A stretch of DNA of 13,326 nt from a virus, in the UHGV virus genome UHGV-0203667, one strand, 5' to 3'. The translations under genes were made by a program, and so were the position numbers. Below, piece by piece: positions 1 through 13,269 of the stretch (position 1 is the stretch's first letter; every line of letters starts with the position of its first letter). The notes under the pieces are model-generated. The model did no database searches. It was not told the origin of the DNA and saw nothing but the letters and a program-made list of their open reading frames with translations.

Positions 1-531
1 ATGTTATTTCAGAAAGATAAAGAATCAGAAAACAAAAAGCTTTTTAAAGCAATAGTAAAAATGTTCTTTAAGGAGGCCGCACAGTTCGGGGCTACTATCC
101 TGCTTATTGGCCCTTGGGCAATGGCTATCTTCTTTTACCCTGCTACCTTATTTATTGGCAGTAGCAAGTTCGGCAATGGACCGTTTCATGTGGATACTGG
201 TTTTATAGATTTTCTCCTGATCCGCCCTATAAATGCTGTTCTCAATGCTTTCTACTTCCCCACTAGTCTGGAAGGGTGGGCGGTCACCTGGGGCGTTTTA
301 GGCTTAGCATTTGCAATATGGGTGATCGGCTTTTGGTGGAATGCGATCTGTGTTCTCCTTGATATCGATGGCGGAAAAAGCCGTAGAAGCGGTGGTAGCA
401 GTGGAGCAGGTATTTATGCACATGTAGGTACCAGGGGAGCTAGTGTTACCGCAGGTACCCGATTCGCTGGCGGCTGGCTGAGCATAGGCAAACGCGGCGT
501 TAGTTGGAGAAAAAGCAAAAAACTGTTCTGA
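1..531 (+). CDS. Predicted membrane protein with two hydrophobic segments and a Gly/Ser/Arg-rich basic C-terminal tail; possibly truncated at the window edge
   Basis: ORF of 176 aa starting at base 1; hydrophobic stretches (ATILLIGPWAMAIFFYPATLFIG; WAVTWGVLGLAFAIWVIGFWWNAICVLL); tail GGKSRRSGGSSGAGIY...; followed directly by an intrinsic terminator. No family recognised. Confidence 0.5.
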   Translation: MLFQKDKESENKKLFKAIVKMFFKEAAQFGATILLIGPWAMAIFFYPATLFIGSSKFGNGPFHVDTGFIDFLLIRPINAVLNAFYFPTSLEGWAVTWGVLGLAFAIWVIGFWWNAICVLLDIDGGKSRRSGGSSGAGIYAHVGTRGASVTAGTRFAGGWLSIGKRGVSWRKSKKLF

Positions 532-1469: not shown

Positions 1470-2016
1470 TTTAACCAGTATAGCTTGTTATCTGCAGACC
1501 ACAAAATAGGAATTTACATCTGATTAACATAATCTGTTAGCATGATCACTATTACCCACACAACAATAACCCCATGTAAGCCTCTTCAGGCAATTTATCG
1601 GCGTGTTGGTGTGAACAGTCTTTCATGTTCTTTATGAATGCATTGTCCTGTGTGAGGGAAGGATGGACTGCCTCAGGGGCCATACTTATGATGCCCGGTC
1701 AACATAGCTATTGATAAAATCAACGGGTGTTGATCTACATATTTCCCACACATGAGAGGAAATCAGAGCAAAGAGAGAGGAGAGAGGTTTGTTAGTCACA
1801 TATGGTGATTTGAGCTCATCTCAAACCTTCTACGAAGGCCTTTGCTAGTCAAAATAGGTCAATTGACGGCTAATACAGAGTAAAAAATCAGATGCAATCA
1901 CTCCCCACCTGTTGGGATTAACGGCCCCGAGTCAAGGCCTATGCAACGAGGGTATTTCCTACAACCCCTTTCAGTCATACTCAGGCACCACACCCCGGTA
2001 AATATTACCCTACTAC

Positions 2017-2328
2017 CCCGGAAGATTTCTCCGCACTACCTGTAAAATATTTTTACTACTAACACCCTCGAGACGAGGGCTATTTGCACGAGTTTAACGC
2101 TCTCGGGAAGAGCTATAGGCGATTCTACCTGTGAAGAATTTTCACACCTGTGTGTTTATACAGTCATACTTTCCTGTTTTGCAGTCATTGCACCCATGAT
2201 ACACAGCCTCTAACTACTGAAGATTTCTCACTACTTAACCACCATACCTACCCACACCCCTGAGAATTTCTCACCACTACTACCGAAGATTTCTCACTAG
2301 TACCCCTGAGAATTTCTCACTCTAATAG
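2017..2328 (+). repeat. Iteron-like array: six copies of core GA(A/G)(A/G)ATTTCTCAC, the last three exactly 23 bp apart
   Basis: Cores at 2021-2033 (degenerate), 2133-2145 (degenerate, GAAGAATTTTCAC), 2219-2231, 2262-2274, 2285-2297, 2308-2320; each preceded by a C-rich tract (CCCC/CTACC). TGAGAATTTCTCA is itself a 6-bp inverted repeat. Confidence 0.6.
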
Positions 2329-2903: not shown

Positions 2904-3053
2904 GTGGAAATTACAGATGTAATAGCGATCATCAACCTGGCTGTACTGTGGTGCGGTGTTGCCTACATAGCCGGAGTAACTGCAATCGACAACCTTGAAG
3001 AAAAAATGATAGATAAATACAAAAAGATTGTTGACAATCTCGCAAATAGCTGA
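2904..3053 (+). CDS. Small hydrophobic peptide (49 aa, GTG start), predicted single transmembrane helix with charged C-terminus
   Basis: SD GGAGG at 2894-2898, 5-nt spacing to GTG 2904; translation (V/M)EITDVIAIINLAVLWCGVAYIAGVTAIDNLEEKMIDKYKKIVDNLANS; stop TGA 3051-3053. Below the length cutoff of the ORF track. Overlapped by the minus-strand ORF 2868-3317, judged spurious. Confidence 0.4.
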   Translation: MEITDVIAIINLAVLWCGVAYIAGVTAIDNLEEKMIDKYKKIVDNLANS

Positions 3054-3059
3054 TAAAAT
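3031..3059 (+). promoter_or_regulatory. Near-consensus sigma70 promoter P1: TTGACA, 17-bp spacer, TAAAAT, with an A-rich upstream tract
   Basis: -35 at 3031-3036, -10 at 3054-3059; spacer contains the recurrent motif TCTCGCAAA (3038-3046); A-rich 3001-3026 resembles an UP element. Confidence 0.6.
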
Positions 3060-3182: not shown

Positions 3183-3398
3183 ATGGCAAGCAACGGACCG
3201 ACTAGCCCCCTGGTTAGCTGGACTACTGATGAGATCGTCGAAAACGTGCTCAGCGGCAAGTTTTATAAAAATTCTGTTTATGCTTTTATCCGTCGTAATA
3301 AAGGAAAATATCCACACATTGAAGCGGCAATTTTAGAACTGAACCGTCTTCGCCTTGAGCGTGAGCTGGCTAAATACACCAACAACATTGATAAATAA
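3183..3398 (+). CDS. Small hypothetical protein (71 aa), possibly regulatory
   Basis: SD AGGAGG at 3170-3175 with 7-nt spacing to ATG 3183; stop TAA 3396-3398; first gene after P1 and the attenuator. Confidence 0.75.
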   Translation: MASNGPTSPLVSWTTDEIVENVLSGKFYKNSVYAFIRRNKGKYPHIEAAILELNRLRLERELAKYTNNIDK

Positions 3399-3411
3399 TT
3401 ATGGGGGAACT

Positions 3412-4308
3412 ATGGCAAGTAATTACGGGGAGGTTTTTAATCCCCATTTCGAACGCCTCATTCAGTACACTTTTGATAAACCAGTAGCAACAACAATTGC
3501 TAATAAAAAGACTGGAAAAACAAAAGAGCGATTTAATTTAGACCTGATAGAGGTAACAATTTATGGAAAAATGGCAGGTTTTCATTTAAACGGGCAAGAA
3601 ATATTTATCTCAGAGCAGACCTTAGCAAAAATATGTGGTGTGAGTGATAGAAAAATCATCGAATCTATCAAAACTCTGGAAAATGCCGGGCTTATTTCTA
3701 AAGAAAGCCGGAAAGGTATGTCTAACATTTACAAACTGTTAATTACTCCTTCTCAAATCTGCAAAATGTGTGATGAACAGAAGATAGAACCAATGAGTAA
3801 TGCAGGTGGTGAAGATAAACAGCCTCAGGAAGCCCCAAAACAAGCCACACAGCAAGCTAAAAAGGCTAAAGTAGTGCAATTGCCTACCCAAGACACTAAA
3901 GCGCCTCAAATTAACGCTGTTAGTGACAAGCCACGCCGGGGCCGTCCTGTGAAAGATGTAACCGATGGGGGCTGGATTGTCCTGGGTGAGAGTGAAGCTA
4001 AAGATAGAATGCGCTCACTGTGGGAAAGCAAATACAAAGGTTTAAATAAACGTTGCCCGATCCGTTTGTCAAAGATTCAGGAGGATTTTTACACCACAGA
4101 GGAGGTAATACGCCATAAAGGCAATAGAGACGGTGAAATCTGGAAACCGGAAGAATACTGGCATTTAACCAGACCTGTTTTTATTTTTGCAAATAAACTT
4201 ATTGGGATGGGATTTGAAATATTGTTAGATCAAACTTACGGAGATTATCCTGAAATATTGTGGAGAAATGTTAGAAAGAATAAAAAAGGCATTTTAGAGT
4301 TTAGATAA
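3412..4308 (+). CDS. Winged-HTH DNA-binding protein with AT-hook-like linker (KPRRGRPVK) and a C-terminal domain of unknown function; putative replication initiator or regulator
   Basis: ATG 3412 after a GGGGG SD (the track's upstream TTG at 3355 has no RBS); N-terminal wHTH-like segment FISEQTLAKICGVSDRKIIESIKTLENAGLISKE; low-complexity linker EDKQPQEAPKQATQQAKKAK; 299 aa. Confidence 0.8.
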   Translation: MASNYGEVFNPHFERLIQYTFDKPVATTIANKKTGKTKERFNLDLIEVTIYGKMAGFHLNGQEIFISEQTLAKICGVSDRKIIESIKTLENAGLISKESRKGMSNIYKLLITPSQICKMCDEQKIEPMSNAGGEDKQPQEAPKQATQQAKKAKVVQLPTQDTKAPQINAVSDKPRRGRPVKDVTDGGWIVLGESEAKDRMRSLWESKYKGLNKRCPIRLSKIQEDFYTTEEVIRHKGNRDGEIWKPEEYWHLTRPVFIFANKLIGMGFEILLDQTYGDYPEILWRNVRKNKKGILEFR

Positions 4309-4349: not shown

Positions 4350-4496
4350 ATGTATGGCGATTTTGATTATTACCTGGAAAAGGAAAAATATTTTGAAGAT
4401 GAACTATCACAACATTTTTCATATTGGGAAGAATATTGTGGTTGGTTAGCTGAAGATCCAGCAGATGAAGAAAATGATTCTGACATCCCTTATTAA
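4350..4496 (+). CDS. Small acidic, aromatic-rich protein (48 aa), hypothetical
   Basis: SD AAGGAA at 4337-4342 with 7-nt spacing to ATG 4350; MYGDFDYYLEKEKYFEDELSQHFSYWEEYCGWLAEDPADEENDSDIPY; below the track cutoff. Confidence 0.4.
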   Translation: MYGDFDYYLEKEKYFEDELSQHFSYWEEYCGWLAEDPADEENDSDIPY

Positions 4497-6308: not shown

Positions 6309-8411
6309 ATGGCAATGAAGGAAGTCGCCAGACTAACAAACGTTATTTACTGGGACTCTGATAAATCCTCCTGGCGAAAAGAAGTTAAGCGCTTGGAGGA
6401 TTATAAAAAATCCTGGAAGAAAGCTACCGACGATATAGCTAAAGCGGATTTTAAATCTAATCAGGCTGTGCTCAGAACACAAAGAACACGCGCTAAGGTG
6501 GAAGAGCAGATCGCCAGAGCACAGAAGAAACAACGTGCTCAGGCTGTCAGCCGTCTGACCGGGGGCAATAATCCGGAGCTCTCCTCTATGCGCAAGTTCT
6601 ATCAGCAGCAAGCCAGAGAGGCCGCCAGACAACAAAAACTGTTAGATCGTAGTGTTGGAGATGTTCAGCACAGAAAAGCACGTGTAGGGGCCAACAGTGC
6701 ACGAATCAGCAGCATGTTTGATGGCTCCCTGGTTGCTCAGTTCCAATCCAGAATTCAAAGAGTTAATGCTGATTATGCTAAAGGGGCTATTAACCTGCAG
6801 ACCTATAATCAGAAAATGGCCCGACTCAGATCTGAAATGAAGATGGCAACAGCAGAGGCCGGAAAATTTCAGAGCAAACTGGATAGAGTTGCGATCACAG
6901 GATCTAAGCTGCATGACAACCTGGGGAAACTAAATTCTACTTTAGGCAAGATAGCTATTGGCCTTACTGCCGCTGGCTGGGGTGTTCAGCGTGCTGTTAG
7001 TGGTGCTATGGGTAGCCTTGCAGATCGCAACAGTGCCTACTTCGGTTTGATGGCACAGAACAAGGATGATAAAGCCAAGACTGATCAGCAGATGGCCTAC
7101 GTCAAAAGAATCTCTTATGACTACGGGATGGATCAGCGTGAGACCGAAGGCGGTTTTATGCGCTTTGCTGCAGCCACACCGAGCATAGAAGAGAAAGATA
7201 AACAGGCTCTTTTTGAGGCTATGGCTATTAAAGGTCGCTCAGTGGGTGCTACCGCAGACCAACAGAACAGGGCTATCGTTGCACTAGGGCAAATATATAG
7301 CAAGGGCGGTCGGGTGTATGCGGAAGAGCTTAAGGGCCAACTTTCTGAAGCCCTGGCAGGTTCTCAGGTAGATTTCACTAAGGCCGCTATCGATGCCGGA
7401 GTCATCAAGAAAGAGGAAGAATTTAATAAAGCCCTTGAAGATGGCAAGATCACCATGGATAAGCTTCTCCCTTCTTTGGTGAAAATCTGGTCTGCAGCCA
7501 AGAATACGAAAGCCTTTGCTGAATCCATGAAACAGCCAGAAGTAGCAATGCAGCGCATGAAAAACAGCTTTAACGAGCTGGCGATTCAGTTTATGGGTGT
7601 TGTGGATCCTGCCGATGGCGTTGTTAGCTTATCTGAATCTCTGATCTCCATCTTCGAAGACCTCACCACTGATATGGACGGCAGCGGGAGCGCGGCAAAA
7701 CAGTTTGGTGAAGCAGTCGGTGCTGCCATGCGGGAGATCATGTATTGGGTAGGCTTCGCTAAGGGATATATCGAGGTCAAGGCTAAAGAGTTCGGCATGA
7801 CCGGATCAGAGGTTGGCGAGCTTATCGGGAAACTAGTAGTCGGCTTAGCTGGTCTGAAAGTTATTACCACACTGCTTTCCCCTCTAACCGGATTTGTTTC
7901 ACTTGTCACCCAACTGATAGCCTTGTTAGGTAAAATCCCTGGTATGAGCAAGCTTATGGCATCTGCCTCAGGTGGAACGGCAACAGGAGCAGCAGTTATC
8001 AGTGCAGGCTCTAACGCTGAAAGAAGCTTCATTGATGGCAAGACGCAGGAAATGAGTAAGGAGAACTCAAAACAGGGTGCTTTGTTTGAGCTGGGAAGAT
8101 TTGTCAGCAATGCTGGCGCACTGTTCACACCTGGCGGTGATACTGGTCCTTTGTTCGATCAGGTCAAAGGCTGGTTTAATAAAGGGCCAACATTGACAGT
8201 AGACACTGGCATCAGACCAACACCAACGGGTGGCATAGCTATCCAGAATGGTGGATATCAACCAGTCCAAGTAAATGTAGCCCCACAAGGTGAGATTTCC
8301 GGCAAATGGGAGATAACCATCGATGAGGGGGGAATTGCCAGGGTGATCCAGAAGGAAGTCAGCGATCAGTTGGATTGGAAAGCCACACAGGAATCTAACC
8401 AGCTTTTCTAA
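6309..8411 (+). CDS. Phage tail tape measure protein (700 aa)
   Basis: SD GAGGTG with 7-nt spacing; charged coiled-coil-like N-terminus; motif ALGQIYSKGGRVYAEELKGQLSEALAGSQ, recalled as the conserved tape-measure motif; central hydrophobic segment (LIGKLVVGLAGLKVITTLLSPLTGFVSLVTQLIALLG); Gly-rich C-terminal part. Confidence 0.8.
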   Translation: MAMKEVARLTNVIYWDSDKSSWRKEVKRLEDYKKSWKKATDDIAKADFKSNQAVLRTQRTRAKVEEQIARAQKKQRAQAVSRLTGGNNPELSSMRKFYQQQAREAARQQKLLDRSVGDVQHRKARVGANSARISSMFDGSLVAQFQSRIQRVNADYAKGAINLQTYNQKMARLRSEMKMATAEAGKFQSKLDRVAITGSKLHDNLGKLNSTLGKIAIGLTAAGWGVQRAVSGAMGSLADRNSAYFGLMAQNKDDKAKTDQQMAYVKRISYDYGMDQRETEGGFMRFAAATPSIEEKDKQALFEAMAIKGRSVGATADQQNRAIVALGQIYSKGGRVYAEELKGQLSEALAGSQVDFTKAAIDAGVIKKEEEFNKALEDGKITMDKLLPSLVKIWSAAKNTKAFAESMKQPEVAMQRMKNSFNELAIQFMGVVDPADGVVSLSESLISIFEDLTTDMDGSGSAAKQFGEAVGAAMREIMYWVGFAKGYIEVKAKEFGMTGSEVGELIGKLVVGLAGLKVITTLLSPLTGFVSLVTQLIALLGKIPGMSKLMASASGGTATGAAVISAGSNAERSFIDGKTQEMSKENSKQGALFELGRFVSNAGALFTPGGDTGPLFDQVKGWFNKGPTLTVDTGIRPTPTGGIAIQNGGYQPVQVNVAPQGEISGKWEITIDEGGIARVIQKEVSDQLDWKATQESNQLF

Positions 8412-8439: not shown

Positions 8440-8462
8440 TGACCGGATAAACTCCAGGCAAG

Positions 8463-8493
8463 AAAAAAGCCCCTAAGTGTTAACAAAGGGGCT
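8463..8493 (-). terminator. Intrinsic terminator for the leftward head operon (AGCCCCT / 12-nt loop / AGGGGCT followed by UUUUUU on the minus strand)
   Basis: 7-bp stem 8468-8474 / 8487-8493; A6 on the plus strand (8463-8468) gives a U-tract on the minus-strand RNA; the plus-strand side lacks a U-tract. Confidence 0.55.
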
Positions 8494-8523
8494 CTTCTCC
8501 GGTATCCTTTTGATGCGGGGCAA

Positions 8524-8913: not shown

Positions 8914-9372
8914 TCAGCCTCTCCCCACATTTGACCAGTATTTGATTGCACCGATCAAATCATCATAGTGGCGCATTGCATCATTGAAGCCTTTATAGCT
9001 TGCCCATTGTGGGGAAACCTTGTTGTTGCTGAATTGCCCACTAATCAGGATAGTCTCCAGAATGTCGGCGTATCGCTTGCCAATTCGCTTCCTGACGGCC
9101 TCAGAGCTCCCACCCTTTACGATTGCATTAATCAGGGCTTTTGTGTGTCTCAGGCTCTCATAGAGCATTGCAGCGTGGGCAGATTCCATAAAGGAGCGCT
9201 TAGGCAGATCACCCCACCCCTCAGAATGAATTGCTGCCAATGTGGCGTAATTCAGGCCGCTATAGTGTTTCCCGTCATCCCAGCCAACCGCTACACCTTC
9301 CATCTGTGAGAGCTCTTTATGCAGCTTATCCATCATGCGCTTGTCTATGGTGCAACGGACTTTCGGACTCAT
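8914..9372 (-). CDS. Hypothetical phage virion morphogenesis / head-tail joining protein (152 aa); family not verified
   Basis: Last gene of the leftward structural operon; start ATG overlaps the stop of the upstream gene (ATGA), suggesting translational coupling. Confidence 0.7.
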   Translation of the reverse strand: MSPKVRCTIDKRMMDKLHKELSQMEGVAVGWDDGKHYSGLNYATLAAIHSEGWGDLPKRSFMESAHAAMLYESLRHTKALINAIVKGGSSEAVRKRIGKRYADILETILISGQFSNNKVSPQWASYKGFNDAMRHYDDLIGAIKYWSNVGRG

Positions 9373-10181
9373 TTGTTGATCTCCGTGATGTCATCAAGCA
9401 ACATGTTGGCCTTATCAATCATCGTTTCGTGGAACTCATTCGACACGACAGACTTATCACCTGCTGCAATCTTTCCCGCTGCCTCTCCCTGTGCATATTC
9501 CCCGCGATGCTTAGCCCTGGTTGATTTCGTAGCAGCATTGCCAGCGTTACTACCCTCTTTAGCACTGTTAACAGCACCCTTTTGCTGTGTTTTATTCACC
9601 TTCTTACTGTTAGTGAAAACTCCGGCATTTTCGACCATCTTCACCTTGAAGGTGCGGAATTCTTCAAAAGTGCAATCAATAGTGATGCAGTCGCCAGAGG
9701 AAGAGCTACGCTTAACTTCACATTTCGTCATGATGAAGTTCTCAAGGAGTCCGACATCTTCACCCACCAGGCTGATAATCTGGCGCTTGTCTCTCATTTC
9801 CATAAGTGCCTGAACAGCGGCAGCAGGGCGCATAGATTCACGGGGATTATCTGGATCAGTGTTCCGGTCGATGTAGTTCTCTTTCCGGATGATATGAGGG
9901 GAAGAGGTAATAATACCCGTAAAGCTGACAGATTTATCTTTAATGACGGCATGGTCTGACATGGTGGTGCCATCCTCGACCGCATAGCTCGATTTCTCAA
10001 CAGGGAACGAATAGCTGACATCAGAGATAGAGTCAAAGAAGATAGCCACATTATCGGTATAGTTGAAGCCATCCATCATATTTTTGTTTTGTGAATATCC
10101 CCCACACATAACAGTGAATGCAGGAGATCTCGACTCAGCTTGTTTTGCAGCTGTCAGAGCATCACTAGCCATATTAAACAT
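9369..10181 (-). CDS. Hypothetical phage structural protein (270 aa) with Lys/Ala/Gly-rich low-complexity C-terminal half
   Basis: In the head operon downstream of the major capsid gene; GGAGG lies 1 nt before ATG 10181 and 10 nt before the in-frame ATG 10172, so the true start may be 10172. Confidence 0.7.
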   Translation of the reverse strand: MFNMASDALTAAKQAESRSPAFTVMCGGYSQNKNMMDGFNYTDNVAIFFDSISDVSYSFPVEKSSYAVEDGTTMSDHAVIKDKSVSFTGIITSSPHIIRKENYIDRNTDPDNPRESMRPAAAVQALMEMRDKRQIISLVGEDVGLLENFIMTKCEVKRSSSSGDCITIDCTFEEFRTFKVKMVENAGVFTNSKKVNKTQQKGAVNSAKEGSNAGNAATKSTRAKHRGEYAQGEAAGKIAAGDKSVVSNEFHETMIDKANMLLDDITEINK

Positions 10182-10587: not shown

Positions 10588-11631
10588 TTATTTAGCCTTG
10601 GCTTTTGCCAGAGCAGCGGCGGCGGTGTTTTTAACACTCACTTTAACCACCACCTCGGGCATCATATTCATAAATGCGTATGAGCTCTCGCAAAAGACCT
10701 CGCGCTTAGCTCTTGAATCTTGCATATACATGAAAGCTTCACGTGCAGCGCCGTTTGCCAGCTGCAGATTGCGAGCGCAAGGGCCAAAAAATTGAGTATA
10801 AACACCCATATCGCCCAGTGCATAAGGCTGGAATTGTGGGACCAGATAAGCAGTATTCTCTGGCAGACTATCCATTTGCACCACACGCAGGGCTAAGCCC
10901 GGAATGCGGAAGGTCGGGAAGCCCGGCAGAATATCCTCAGGGAACATCAGACCTTTGTCGGTAATGTTCTGATTGCCGAACAACAGCACTTTACGAAGCA
11001 GCTCGTCAGTCTGAATTGCAGCAAAGAGTTCAGCACGGCAGAACAGGGTGAAACCACGCAGGGCACGAACGACACCACGCTGTTTAACCTTGCTCAGTGC
11101 AACCAGGTCCTGCAGCTGTTTAAGGATATCTTGAGCTAGATCCACTTCAGAGGTGGACTGTTCTACTCCCAGCAGTTCGCACACATTCAGTTCTTTACCC
11201 TTGGTGAGGATAATTTTGTTCTCAAAGAGAGCAAGCTGGCGTGCTTCTTCGTGGGTCTGGCGTAAGCCTTCGCCAAGCTGAATAACACGACGAGCGGTTA
11301 CAGACTCTAAATTCTCTTCGGAATCTTTGCCCGGAACACGGATACCTTGCCAGTCTGACGGGAATATGGCCGAGCTGGCGGCTGTAAAGGCCATGTCGCC
11401 CGTGCCCGTTTCACGCTCATCTGCGGTAATGGTAGCCATCTGTTCACCGTAGCGCGGATACTGACCGAAAGCGGTTTGTTTCACCCTGCGAACTTTGTCG
11501 TACTCAAATTTGAACGTCGAAGAATAGACGGTAGTATTAAACACGTTCATTGCTGAAATAATCTGGTTATCCAGCGGGATATCTTTAATCAGACCACACA
11601 GATCGCGAACTTCGAATTCTTTCTTAGCCAT
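10588..11631 (-). CDS. Major capsid protein, lambda gpE-like (347 aa)
   Basis: Perfect SD AAGGAGG 6 nt upstream of ATG 11631 (the track's longer N-terminal extension is discounted); size about 340 aa; segments recalled as resembling lambda gpE (RRVIQLGEGLRQTHEEARQLA ~ RRRIIMQNMRDEELAIAQVEE; C-terminal REAFMYMQDS...PEVVVKV ~ AREFTMIQSAP...DEFVSV); preceded by a decoration-sized gene. Confidence 0.7.
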   Translation of the reverse strand: MAKKEFEVRDLCGLIKDIPLDNQIISAMNVFNTTVYSSTFKFEYDKVRRVKQTAFGQYPRYGEQMATITADERETGTGDMAFTAASSAIFPSDWQGIRVPGKDSEENLESVTARRVIQLGEGLRQTHEEARQLALFENKIILTKGKELNVCELLGVEQSTSEVDLAQDILKQLQDLVALSKVKQRGVVRALRGFTLFCRAELFAAIQTDELLRKVLLFGNQNITDKGLMFPEDILPGFPTFRIPGLALRVVQMDSLPENTAYLVPQFQPYALGDMGVYTQFFGPCARNLQLANGAAREAFMYMQDSRAKREVFCESSYAFMNMMPEVVVKVSVKNTAAAALAKAKAK

Positions 11632-11642
11632 TTTCAACCTCC

Positions 11643-12660: not shown

Positions 12661-12757
12661 ATCTTTTGATCAATATCAATGTTTTCCTGGGATTTGCCCG
12701 GCTATAGTTCGAATCAAGGAAGGGGAGCATTGATAGCACCAAAACCGAACAAACAAA

Positions 12758-12906: not shown

Positions 12907-13008
12907 GATGGGCAAAGGAGGCAAAGCATTTTTTAATAGGTCTGGCTATCCTGGATGTTCTACTAATCATGATTGAGCGGAGTTTATGAACAGCATTGAG
13001 AGGAGTTT

Positions 13009-13269
13009 ATGACGGGGGCTAAAGATATCAGGAGACTGAGGGAAGAGCTGATAGCTGAAATTAAAGCTAAGGCAAAGCAAATGGAGATAGCCGCGCAAAT
13101 GGATGTAGCGGAACAGATGTACAAGATGGTTGAAGAGGGAACACCACGACAGGTTATCGCTAAAACCTTCGGTGTGGGGATCGCCACCGTGCACAGAAGG
13201 CTGAAAGCCTATGCCGACTACCACAACATTGAGAGAGGGGAGGATGGGAGATTTAAGAAGAATAAATAG
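13009..13269 (+). CDS. Small DNA-binding protein (86 aa): coiled-coil-like N-terminus plus C-terminal HTH of the Hin/resolvase or sigma region-4 type (TPRQVIAKTFGVGIATVHRRLK)
   Basis: SD GAGAGGAG before ATG 13009; preceded by a tandem-duplicated RBS-ATG unit and an 8-codon upstream ORF whose stop overlaps the start (ATGA). Confidence 0.75.
   Translation: MTGAKDIRRLREELIAEIKAKAKQMEIAAQMDVAEQMYKMVEEGTPRQVIAKTFGVGIATVHRRLKAYADYHNIERGEDGRFKKNK

Follow-up and report, generated by a model that had tools for sequence, protein, structure and literature searches.

A probable iteron-specific replication initiator with an exchangeable orphan C-terminal domain in a family of 13-14 kb phage-like Escherichia coli plasmids

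The stretch of DNA analyzed here (the window, 13,326 bp, virus genome UHGV-0203667) is a whole plasmid, colinear from end to end with complete circular Escherichia coli plasmids of 13.2-13.7 kb at 91-93% identity. On its plus strand, an open reading frame (ORF) at 3412-4308, which we call rep, encodes 298 aa and a stop; it begins with ATG at 3412, ends with TAA at 4306-4308 and is preceded 5-6 nt upstream by the Shine-Dalgarno sequence GGGGGAA. The ORF is real and conserved: the homologous ORF of the plasmids with 91-93% identity is annotated as 'helix-turn-helix domain-containing protein', and there are about 100 homologue clusters, all on plasmid-sized Escherichia/Shigella contigs with a longest form of 13-14.4 kb. 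The predicted protein has a winged-helix N-domain, a disordered linker and an orphan C-domain, and upstream of the gene lie an array of four dyad repeats (iterons), an AT-rich box and a G/C-rich hairpin. We consider it probable that rep encodes an origin-binding, iteron-specific, lambda-O-like replication initiator of these 13-14 kb phage-like plasmids, equipped with an exchangeable orphan C-module.

The N-domain (aa 1-125; 3412-3786, plus strand) is an extended winged helix of the HTH_36 class. Pfam HTH_36 (PF13730) matches aa 47-95 with 31.8 bits (E 1.3e-7), above the gathering cut-off of 25 bits, which places the protein in the family, and the same match is precomputed for most of the homologues. 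The closest annotated relatives are PHROG 270, 678 and 391 (E 1e-10 to 1e-8), which together with PHROG 186 give the best profile matches (E 1e-10 to 3e-8, aa 46-182); all nine of the best PHROG matches are to proteins described as replication-initiation, O-like or DnaD-like. The matches are limited to the N-domain and linker and fall within the first halves of profiles of 298-383 positions, and the C-terminal regions of these proteins are different ones. In an AlphaFold model based on 100 homologues, aa 11-122 form a confident extended winged helix, comprising in order an N-terminal helix, a β-hairpin, three helices, a wing and a closing helix. A sequence-only reading of the window had recognized here a winged-helix domain of the kind found in phage and plasmid initiators, and the HTH_36 and PHROG matches bear this out; the layout it described, with a winged helix-turn-helix (wHTH) domain and a linker followed by an unrecognized domain, is likewise confirmed by Pfam, PHROG and the model.

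The Gln/Lys/Pro linker (aa 126-182; 3787-3957, plus strand) is disordered, with pLDDT below 50 at aa 129-182. It contains the segment QEAPKQATQQ, whose columns are invariant in 100 sequences and which forms the joint between the N and C modules, and ends in the AT-hook-like motif KPRRGRPVK (aa 173-181; 3928-3954, plus strand). The Pfam AT_hook profile gave no match to the motif segment. PRRGRPVK (aa 174-181) lies where pLDDT is below 50 and is kept only among alleles of one C-domain type, C-type I; C-types II and III carry ERRRDAGKRE at the same position, and three distant relatives (P0101-P0103) lack RGRP and show LM(K/Q/E)R.RD.YGY instead. The low-complexity linker and its motif are thus present as the sequence-only reading described them, but the motif is no family feature, and it may serve C-type I proteins as an optional extra contact in the minor groove.

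The C-domain (aa 183-298; 3958-4305, plus strand) is an orphan α/β domain with an invariant YWHLT, occurs as three alleles with 27-42% identity and forms a separate domain in the AlphaFold model. Searches of Pfam (E up to 10), a PDB profile search and a comparison with viral structures all returned no match, in agreement with the earlier remark that this region resembles nothing recognized. A C-domain profile run against 1.84 billion representative proteins matched only five: two from the family itself, two distant proteins that share the three-part layout (P0101 and P0102) and one stand-alone protein of 138 aa (P0103). The gene for the latter lies on a metagenomic phage-like contig (L020, 9705-11420), where a 91-aa acidic protein ending DDDMDGSPF is followed by the C-domain, an 83-aa gene, a separate 164-aa HTH_36 gene and six iterons. 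This arrangement indicates that the C-domain is an autonomous module that is genetically linked to the HTH_36 domain. When 100 representatives of the family were clustered by domain, five N clusters and three C clusters were obtained, and 13 of the 15 combinations are occupied. Judged by these clusters, the family is a natural domain-swap series in which the C-domain is an independent, exchangeable module.

The cognate iteron array lies at 2213-2322 (plus strand) and consists of four copies with cores at 2219-2229, 2262-2272, 2285-2295 and 2308-2318, that is, with spacings of 43, 23 and 23 bp; TRF reports a period of 23 at 2256-2321. Each iteron of the window has the dyad form GA(G/A)(A/G)A-T-TTCTC, and a distal fifth copy of the cognate class (CCCCGGAAGATTTCTCCG) was found by motif scan at 2016-2033 (plus strand). 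Allowing up to one mismatch, GARRATTTCTC has nine matches in the window against 1.3 expected, a number reached in 0 of 200 shuffles, and the five exact copies all fall within 2021-2318. The repeats beside the gene that had been pointed out from the sequence therefore exceed chance, but "beside" is a loose description, with the array ending about 1.1 kb upstream of the rep start codon. We compared the window with 18 fetched family plasmids (19 in all) carrying initiators of the HTH_36 class or of a second, M-type class described below. In every plasmid, four repeats stand directly to the left of the conserved box CTAATAGATAAAG.AATAGAT, arranged as one repeat, a gap of about 43 bp and three repeats at 22-23 bp, and every repeat has a dyad-symmetric core around an A/T center.

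The sequence of these repeats tracks the type of the N-domain. The iteron is GA(G/A)(A/G)ATTTCTC in N-type A, CCTGTTGGAATTTCCCACA in B, GGTAAAATTTACCG in C, CCTGTCAAAATATTTTAC in both D and E, and CGGTAAATATTTCCG in F. In the homologue alignment most differences between the N-domain types fall in three places, namely aa 26-45, the helix-turn-helix (aa 73-86) and the wing (aa 96-100), and like recognition helices go with like iterons: types D and E share SRPT(I/V)I, and types C and F share KTVR(T/S)AI. Arrays are identical within an N-type regardless of the C-allele (A, B and D each occur with I, II and III). For the three tandem iterons of the 19 plasmids, identity is 0.94 within N-types versus 0.56 between them (permutation p<=5e-5), and the same permutation test by C-type gives p=0.71. 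A sliding scan in 60-column windows over 16 aligned whole plasmids found association with N-type in just two places, the N-coding DNA at 3394-3825 and the iteron region at 2098-2361. Across the approximately 1 kb that separates array and rep, there is no N-type association except in two weak, indel-rich windows, and C-type is not tracked either. The association flips from N-type to C-type at about 3825-3854, within the linker, and C-type association is limited to the C-coding DNA and a small downstream ORF; no plasmid locus outside the C-coding DNA tracks C-type I versus III. Two further N-type signals (12718-12734 and 12938-13028) proved on inspection to be indel haplotypes that are not partitioned by type. 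Since recombination freely exchanges the C-module next to it and yet the iterons farther away still match the N-domain, the pattern is most simply explained by selection for a specific pairing of protein and DNA, and there is strong comparative evidence that the N-domain would bind the 2213-2322 array.

A second array, at 561-611, just after the terminator of the first gene, consists of about 4.6 copies of the 11-nt repeat TATTTA(T/A)NNNN, with copy number and inserts that vary among plasmids. It had been considered as another target of the protein but shows no association with either N- or C-type. The earlier proposal of an initiator or regulator acting on the repeats is thus supported for the 2213-2322 array, with which N-type covaries, and finds no support for the repeats at 579-611, which track neither domain. 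Upstream of the main array there are also single iteron-like sites of other classes (1993-2010, 2039-2056, 2128-2150 and about 1906-1920); the classes seen among the upstream single sites, including 2016-2033, are F-like, A', D/E-like, a 'G' class and partial B-like, and similar sets occur in every relative. The heterologous sites may be recombination relics or serve cross-talk or titration.

Directly to the right of the array is an AT-rich box of 32 bp (CTAATAGATAAAGGAATAGATCAATAAAAAGA, 2322-2353, 78% A+T), which has two AATAGAT copies 11 bp apart and a single GATC, and is conserved whatever the iteron type; we propose it as the unwinding element. It is adjoined by a G/C-rich hairpin (2354-2387) that is also conserved among the plasmids. 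In a distant relative (L021, 6164-7400), six dyad repeats with 22-bp spacing directly follow the gene and lead into a CTAATAGAT.AAAGAATAGAT box, so that the AT box is shared with the window and the iterons differ from those of the window. The contig with the stand-alone C-domain has its six repeats, spaced 43, 43, 22, 22 and 22, after the split HTH_36 gene.

Further evidence on this core comes from three sister plasmids in which the rep slot is taken by a different gene (L007 2183-3094, L025 6834-7691 and L026 8676-9542). In L007, this slot encodes a MarR-like wHTH domain ("M-type") that is joined by the linker known from rep (here QEAPKQAAQQ) to a segment rich in Ser and Thr and to an acidic, aromatic tail with the end NDSAIPY. 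The M-type wHTH is unrelated to the HTH_36 class, and the lineage comprises 44 clusters, whose contigs all measure 13.4-14.1 kb and which without exception keep the tail. In addition to the HTH_36-class iterons on the left of the AT box and hairpin, each of the three plasmids carries three dyad repeats (spacings 44 and 33 bp) on the right. The sequence of the extra repeats differs with the recognition-helix subtype: TATCAACATATCAATNTGATATA with ILQPNIARAIK (L007), TAGGTGTGCGGTTACAGCACATCTATA with IARTDALKAIK (L025) and CTAGATGTACGTAATTGGTACACTTAAA with ILRPHAVRAIK (L026). Two unrelated classes of binder thus flank one conserved core, as would be expected if the core were the site of unwinding, which marks the conserved AT box and hairpin as the putative shared functional center. 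L007 had stood out as an exception, with F-type iterons and no HTH_36 Rep; its own M-type repeats explain this in part, and the F-type array is still retained. In four other plasmids, orf71 and rep are separated by a further wHTH ORF that consists of an N-domain only (L002 6882-7247, L010 1394-1894, L011 2618-3136 and L018 8107-8607), which belongs either to a sixth HTH_36-like type (121 aa) or to a truncated M-type (166-172 aa). Repeats that might be cognate to these ORFs, including the truncated M-type of L010, L011 and L018, were looked for and not found.

Downstream of rep, a 48-aa ORF (4350-4496, plus strand) encodes an acidic, aromatic protein (isoelectric point 4.1, 12 aromatic residues) that ends in NDSDIPY and is proposed here as a partner of the C-domain. 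It has no homologues outside the plasmid family, and its identity among plasmids of C-types I and III is 96-100%. Plasmids with C-allele II have a different acidic ORF of 53/54 aa, ending DEDY or DEYY (5/5 plasmids), and in the three M-type plasmids the C-domain and the 48-aa ORF are both missing. The stand-alone C-domain of L020 is likewise preceded by an acidic protein, ending SPF. The NDSDIPY end resembles the C-terminal tip of SSB, DDDIPF, to which more than a dozen proteins of replication and repair bind (PMC4137731). This pattern of fusion, split and co-occurrence suggests that the C-domain may dock an acidic mini-protein that in turn contacts the host machinery. We also speculated on a more elaborate scheme, in which the C-domain and the 48-aa protein form a two-piece recruiter of the host replisome: NDSDIPY would mimic the SSB tip and capture SSB-interacting proteins (PriA, DnaG, chi) at the origin, the fused tail of the sister initiators (NDSAIPY) would make C-domain and mini-gene dispensable, and the C-alleles and single heterologous iterons would reflect competition or escape from incompatibility among co-infecting plasmid satellites. 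As a whole this scheme is doubtful.

Taken together, the features of an iteron-dependent initiator found at this locus are a specific DNA-binding domain, tandem repeats about two helical turns apart with an A+T-rich element, and, by comparison of plasmids, cognate pairing of the two. Initiation of replication by the rep protein would, we infer, proceed as follows. Dimers of the N-terminal winged helix would bind the four dyad iterons at 2213-2322, as the covariation indicates, and the resulting nucleoprotein complex would destabilize the AT-rich box at 2322-2353, by analogy with ori lambda. The C-domain, held on its disordered linker, would then bring in host replication proteins, perhaps (and speculatively) through the 48-aa acidic protein with its SSB-tip-like end. 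As a specificity pair, the N-domain and the iterons would set the replicon or incompatibility type.

The closest parallel is with phage lambda. At ori lambda, the O protein binds as dimers to four dyad iterons spaced 20, 24 and 23 bp beside an AT-rich tract, with an N-domain that binds DNA and a C-domain behind a flexible linker that binds P (PMC6022878, PMC7466680). The rep system shares this plan of a DNA-binding N-domain, linker and C-terminal domain, and of four dyad iterons mostly 20-24 bp apart next to AT-rich DNA. In lambdoid phages, moreover, the N-domain and ori form a type-specific pair and the C-terminal specificity is independent, a modular pattern that matches that of the N and C modules of the rep family. 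There are also clear differences. The lambda origin lies inside the O gene, whereas the iterons here are about 1.1 kb upstream of rep; a P-type helicase loader follows O, whereas rep is followed by the 48-aa acidic ORF and by genes that match no loader family; and the rep C-domain is an unrelated orphan fold.

Initiators of other plasmids offer further points of comparison. The RepA_N initiators of Gram-positive plasmids (pSK41/pTZ2162 RepA) are a listed close system, of which pPR9 is a variant with a PF13730 N-domain. In pPR9 Rep, this domain replaces the RepA_N domain of pSK41 Rep and the C-domain is kept; the protein replicates autonomously, is compatible with pSK41 and shows experimentally that a PF13730 N-domain can be the origin-specific domain (PMC5703833). 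The C-domain of rep is not of the five-helix type of the DnaD and RepA C-domains. The iteron initiators of the Rep_3 family (RepE, pi, RepA of pPS10/pSC101) act on an origin of iterons and AT-rich DNA with a single plasmid-encoded specificity protein. The rep system resembles them in having an iteron-plus-AT-rich origin on an E. coli plasmid and one plasmid-encoded specificity protein, but those proteins have two tandem winged-helix domains where rep has one wHTH and an orphan domain, they initiate as monomers where the dyad iterons here suggest binding by dimers, and no inverted-repeat operator was seen at the rep promoter. By its profile matches, the rep protein is a member of HTH_36 and not of Phage_rep_O, RepA_N or Rep_3. 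Of added interest are the natural recognition code, the rare C-domain and the proposed acidic-tail partner, in a putative initiator of an otherwise known kind.

Could the protein instead be a transcriptional repressor of the immunity type, or master regulator, with the dyad sites serving as operators like OR and OL of cI, the C-domain as an oligomerization domain and the covariation as a reflection of immunity types? Phage repressors, too, typically have tandem dyad sites about 23 bp apart and are built of an N-domain, a linker and a C-domain; the element is phage-like, Pfam reports weak, sub-threshold matches to GntR, MarR and Crp HTH domains, and homologues appear in some sources as 'GntR family transcriptional regulator' or 'winged helix-turn-helix transcription repressor'. 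However, no acceptable sigma-70-like promoter overlaps the array: the two strong ones, at 2840-2868 and 3031-3059 (plus strand, ahead of orf49, orf71 and rep), are over 500 bp downstream and have no iteron-like site (up to one mismatch) near them, and leftward of the array there is no gene for 1.7 kb. An autoregulatory site, common although not universal among initiators, is by the same scan not seen at these promoters. The C-domain is neither an S24 peptidase nor another repressor C-domain with a known role in oligomerization, the PHROG matches are to replication initiators, and, as in origins, a conserved AT-rich box lies directly beside the array. Assignment to a well-characterized non-replicative family, such as a repressor or antirepressor, had been named in advance as the result that would overturn the initiator proposal; it was looked for, and no such family reached threshold. 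We therefore regard a repressor as unlikely.

A role in copy control, incompatibility or partition, with replication driven by host DnaA, transcription or another plasmid product, appears to us more unlikely still. wHTH proteins of the TubR type are known to bind iteron-like centromeres, the M-type plasmids hold HTH_36-class arrays with no cognate protein, and the single heterologous iteron-like sites in every plasmid would fit titration or competition. Against this, no gene for the cognate NTPase of a partition system (ParA, ParM or TubZ type) was found among the ORFs or the annotated relatives, and the DnaA boxes are not clustered at any candidate origin. Nor did any alternative initiator or ColE1-like RNA come to light: the window encodes no Rep_3, RepA_N, HUH or primase protein, and at E<=1 Rfam reports no ColE1-type RNA and no tRNA, only ctRNA_p42d at 8458-8498 with 23.6 bits against a gathering score of 50 bits. 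That the protein is a DnaD-like replisome organizer or helicase-loader adaptor, acting after another factor has opened the origin, we find very improbable, as covariation with a repeat array in a sequence-specific manner is characteristic of proteins that recognize an origin, DnaD is not used by E. coli and the C-domain is unlike those of DnaD or RepA.

Several points weigh against the initiator reading itself. That the protein acts in replication, that it binds DNA and where the origin lies are all inferred. The covariation was found among related plasmids, where shared ancestry is not fully separable from selection, and the intact HTH_36-class arrays of M-type plasmids show that an array can persist with no binder. 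Homology to lambda O is not detectable (Phage_rep_O gave no Pfam match, and hhalign of the 100-sequence profile with lambda O a probability of 0.1), and RepA_N and Rep_3 are not among the Pfam matches at E<=0.1. As to the origin, no cluster of DnaA boxes lies near the iterons (the 13 near-matches in the window, tried as an origin marker, were dropped for this reason), and the AT-rich box is only about 32 bp long. The cumulative GC skew has its minimum at 2370 and its maximum roughly opposite on the circle, a signal that is confounded by gene orientation and by the C-rich iterons. No homology supports any role for the C-domain, and its link to the 48-aa ORF consists of adjacency, one allele-specific co-occurrence (C-II) and the fusion argument; adjacency by itself could be enough to account for the linkage, and the 48-aa ORF is identical between C-alleles I and III.

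If the protein is indeed an initiator, it would define a replicon family of E. coli/Shigella plasmids that are otherwise without a replicon type in PLSDB, where the records of the complete relatives, typed as non-mobilizable, give mobility typing only and name no replicon type. The swap series would pair about five recognition-helix variants with five iteron sequences, which would be useful for plasmid typing and for the design of compatible vectors. It would also isolate a rare domain (5 of 1.84 billion) that probably couples the initiator to the host replication machinery, and the natural fusion and the natural split version would point to the partner of this domain. Knowing the replicon would be the first step to manipulating the element.

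The plasmid family is scarce in complete genomes (7/5,426) and common and diverse in raw assemblies. We found no specific description of it in the literature, and megablast of the window against phages gave no match. Its recognizable phage-like genes are those for a tape-measure protein (6309-8411, plus strand), a Dit-like baseplate protein (9369-10181, minus strand) and a major capsid protein (about 10588-11634, minus strand); no terminase, portal or tail-tube gene was recognized in the window. With capsid, tape-measure and Dit-like genes as its only phage genes, the element may represent a family of plasmid-borne phage satellites that has not yet been described. The genes g162, g147 and g146 are 90-99% identical across all plasmids compared.

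Immediately upstream of rep, and in a common transcription unit with it, is a 71-aa ORF (orf71, 3183-3398, plus strand). The array and the core lie within a 2.3-kb stretch (540-2870) with no convincing ORFs, part of which, at 2350-2830 between the origin-like core and the rep promoters, is ORF-poor and hairpin-dense on both strands, with RNA folding z-scores of -4.5 (minus) and -5.3 (plus) and three terminator-like hairpins on the minus strand. Its counterpart in relatives is made up of a varying series of hairpin cassettes with YTGTGTGGGG between them, and the region may give a leftward transcript into the origin or hold single-strand initiation sites or a packaging site. The first gene of the window (1-531, plus strand) encodes a predicted membrane protein of 176 aa and occupies a variable slot, filled in relatives by unrelated alleles of 173, 195 or 233-236 aa; this slot is preceded by a conserved 86-aa gene with a resolvase-type HTH domain (HTH_7) at 13009-13269 on the plus strand.

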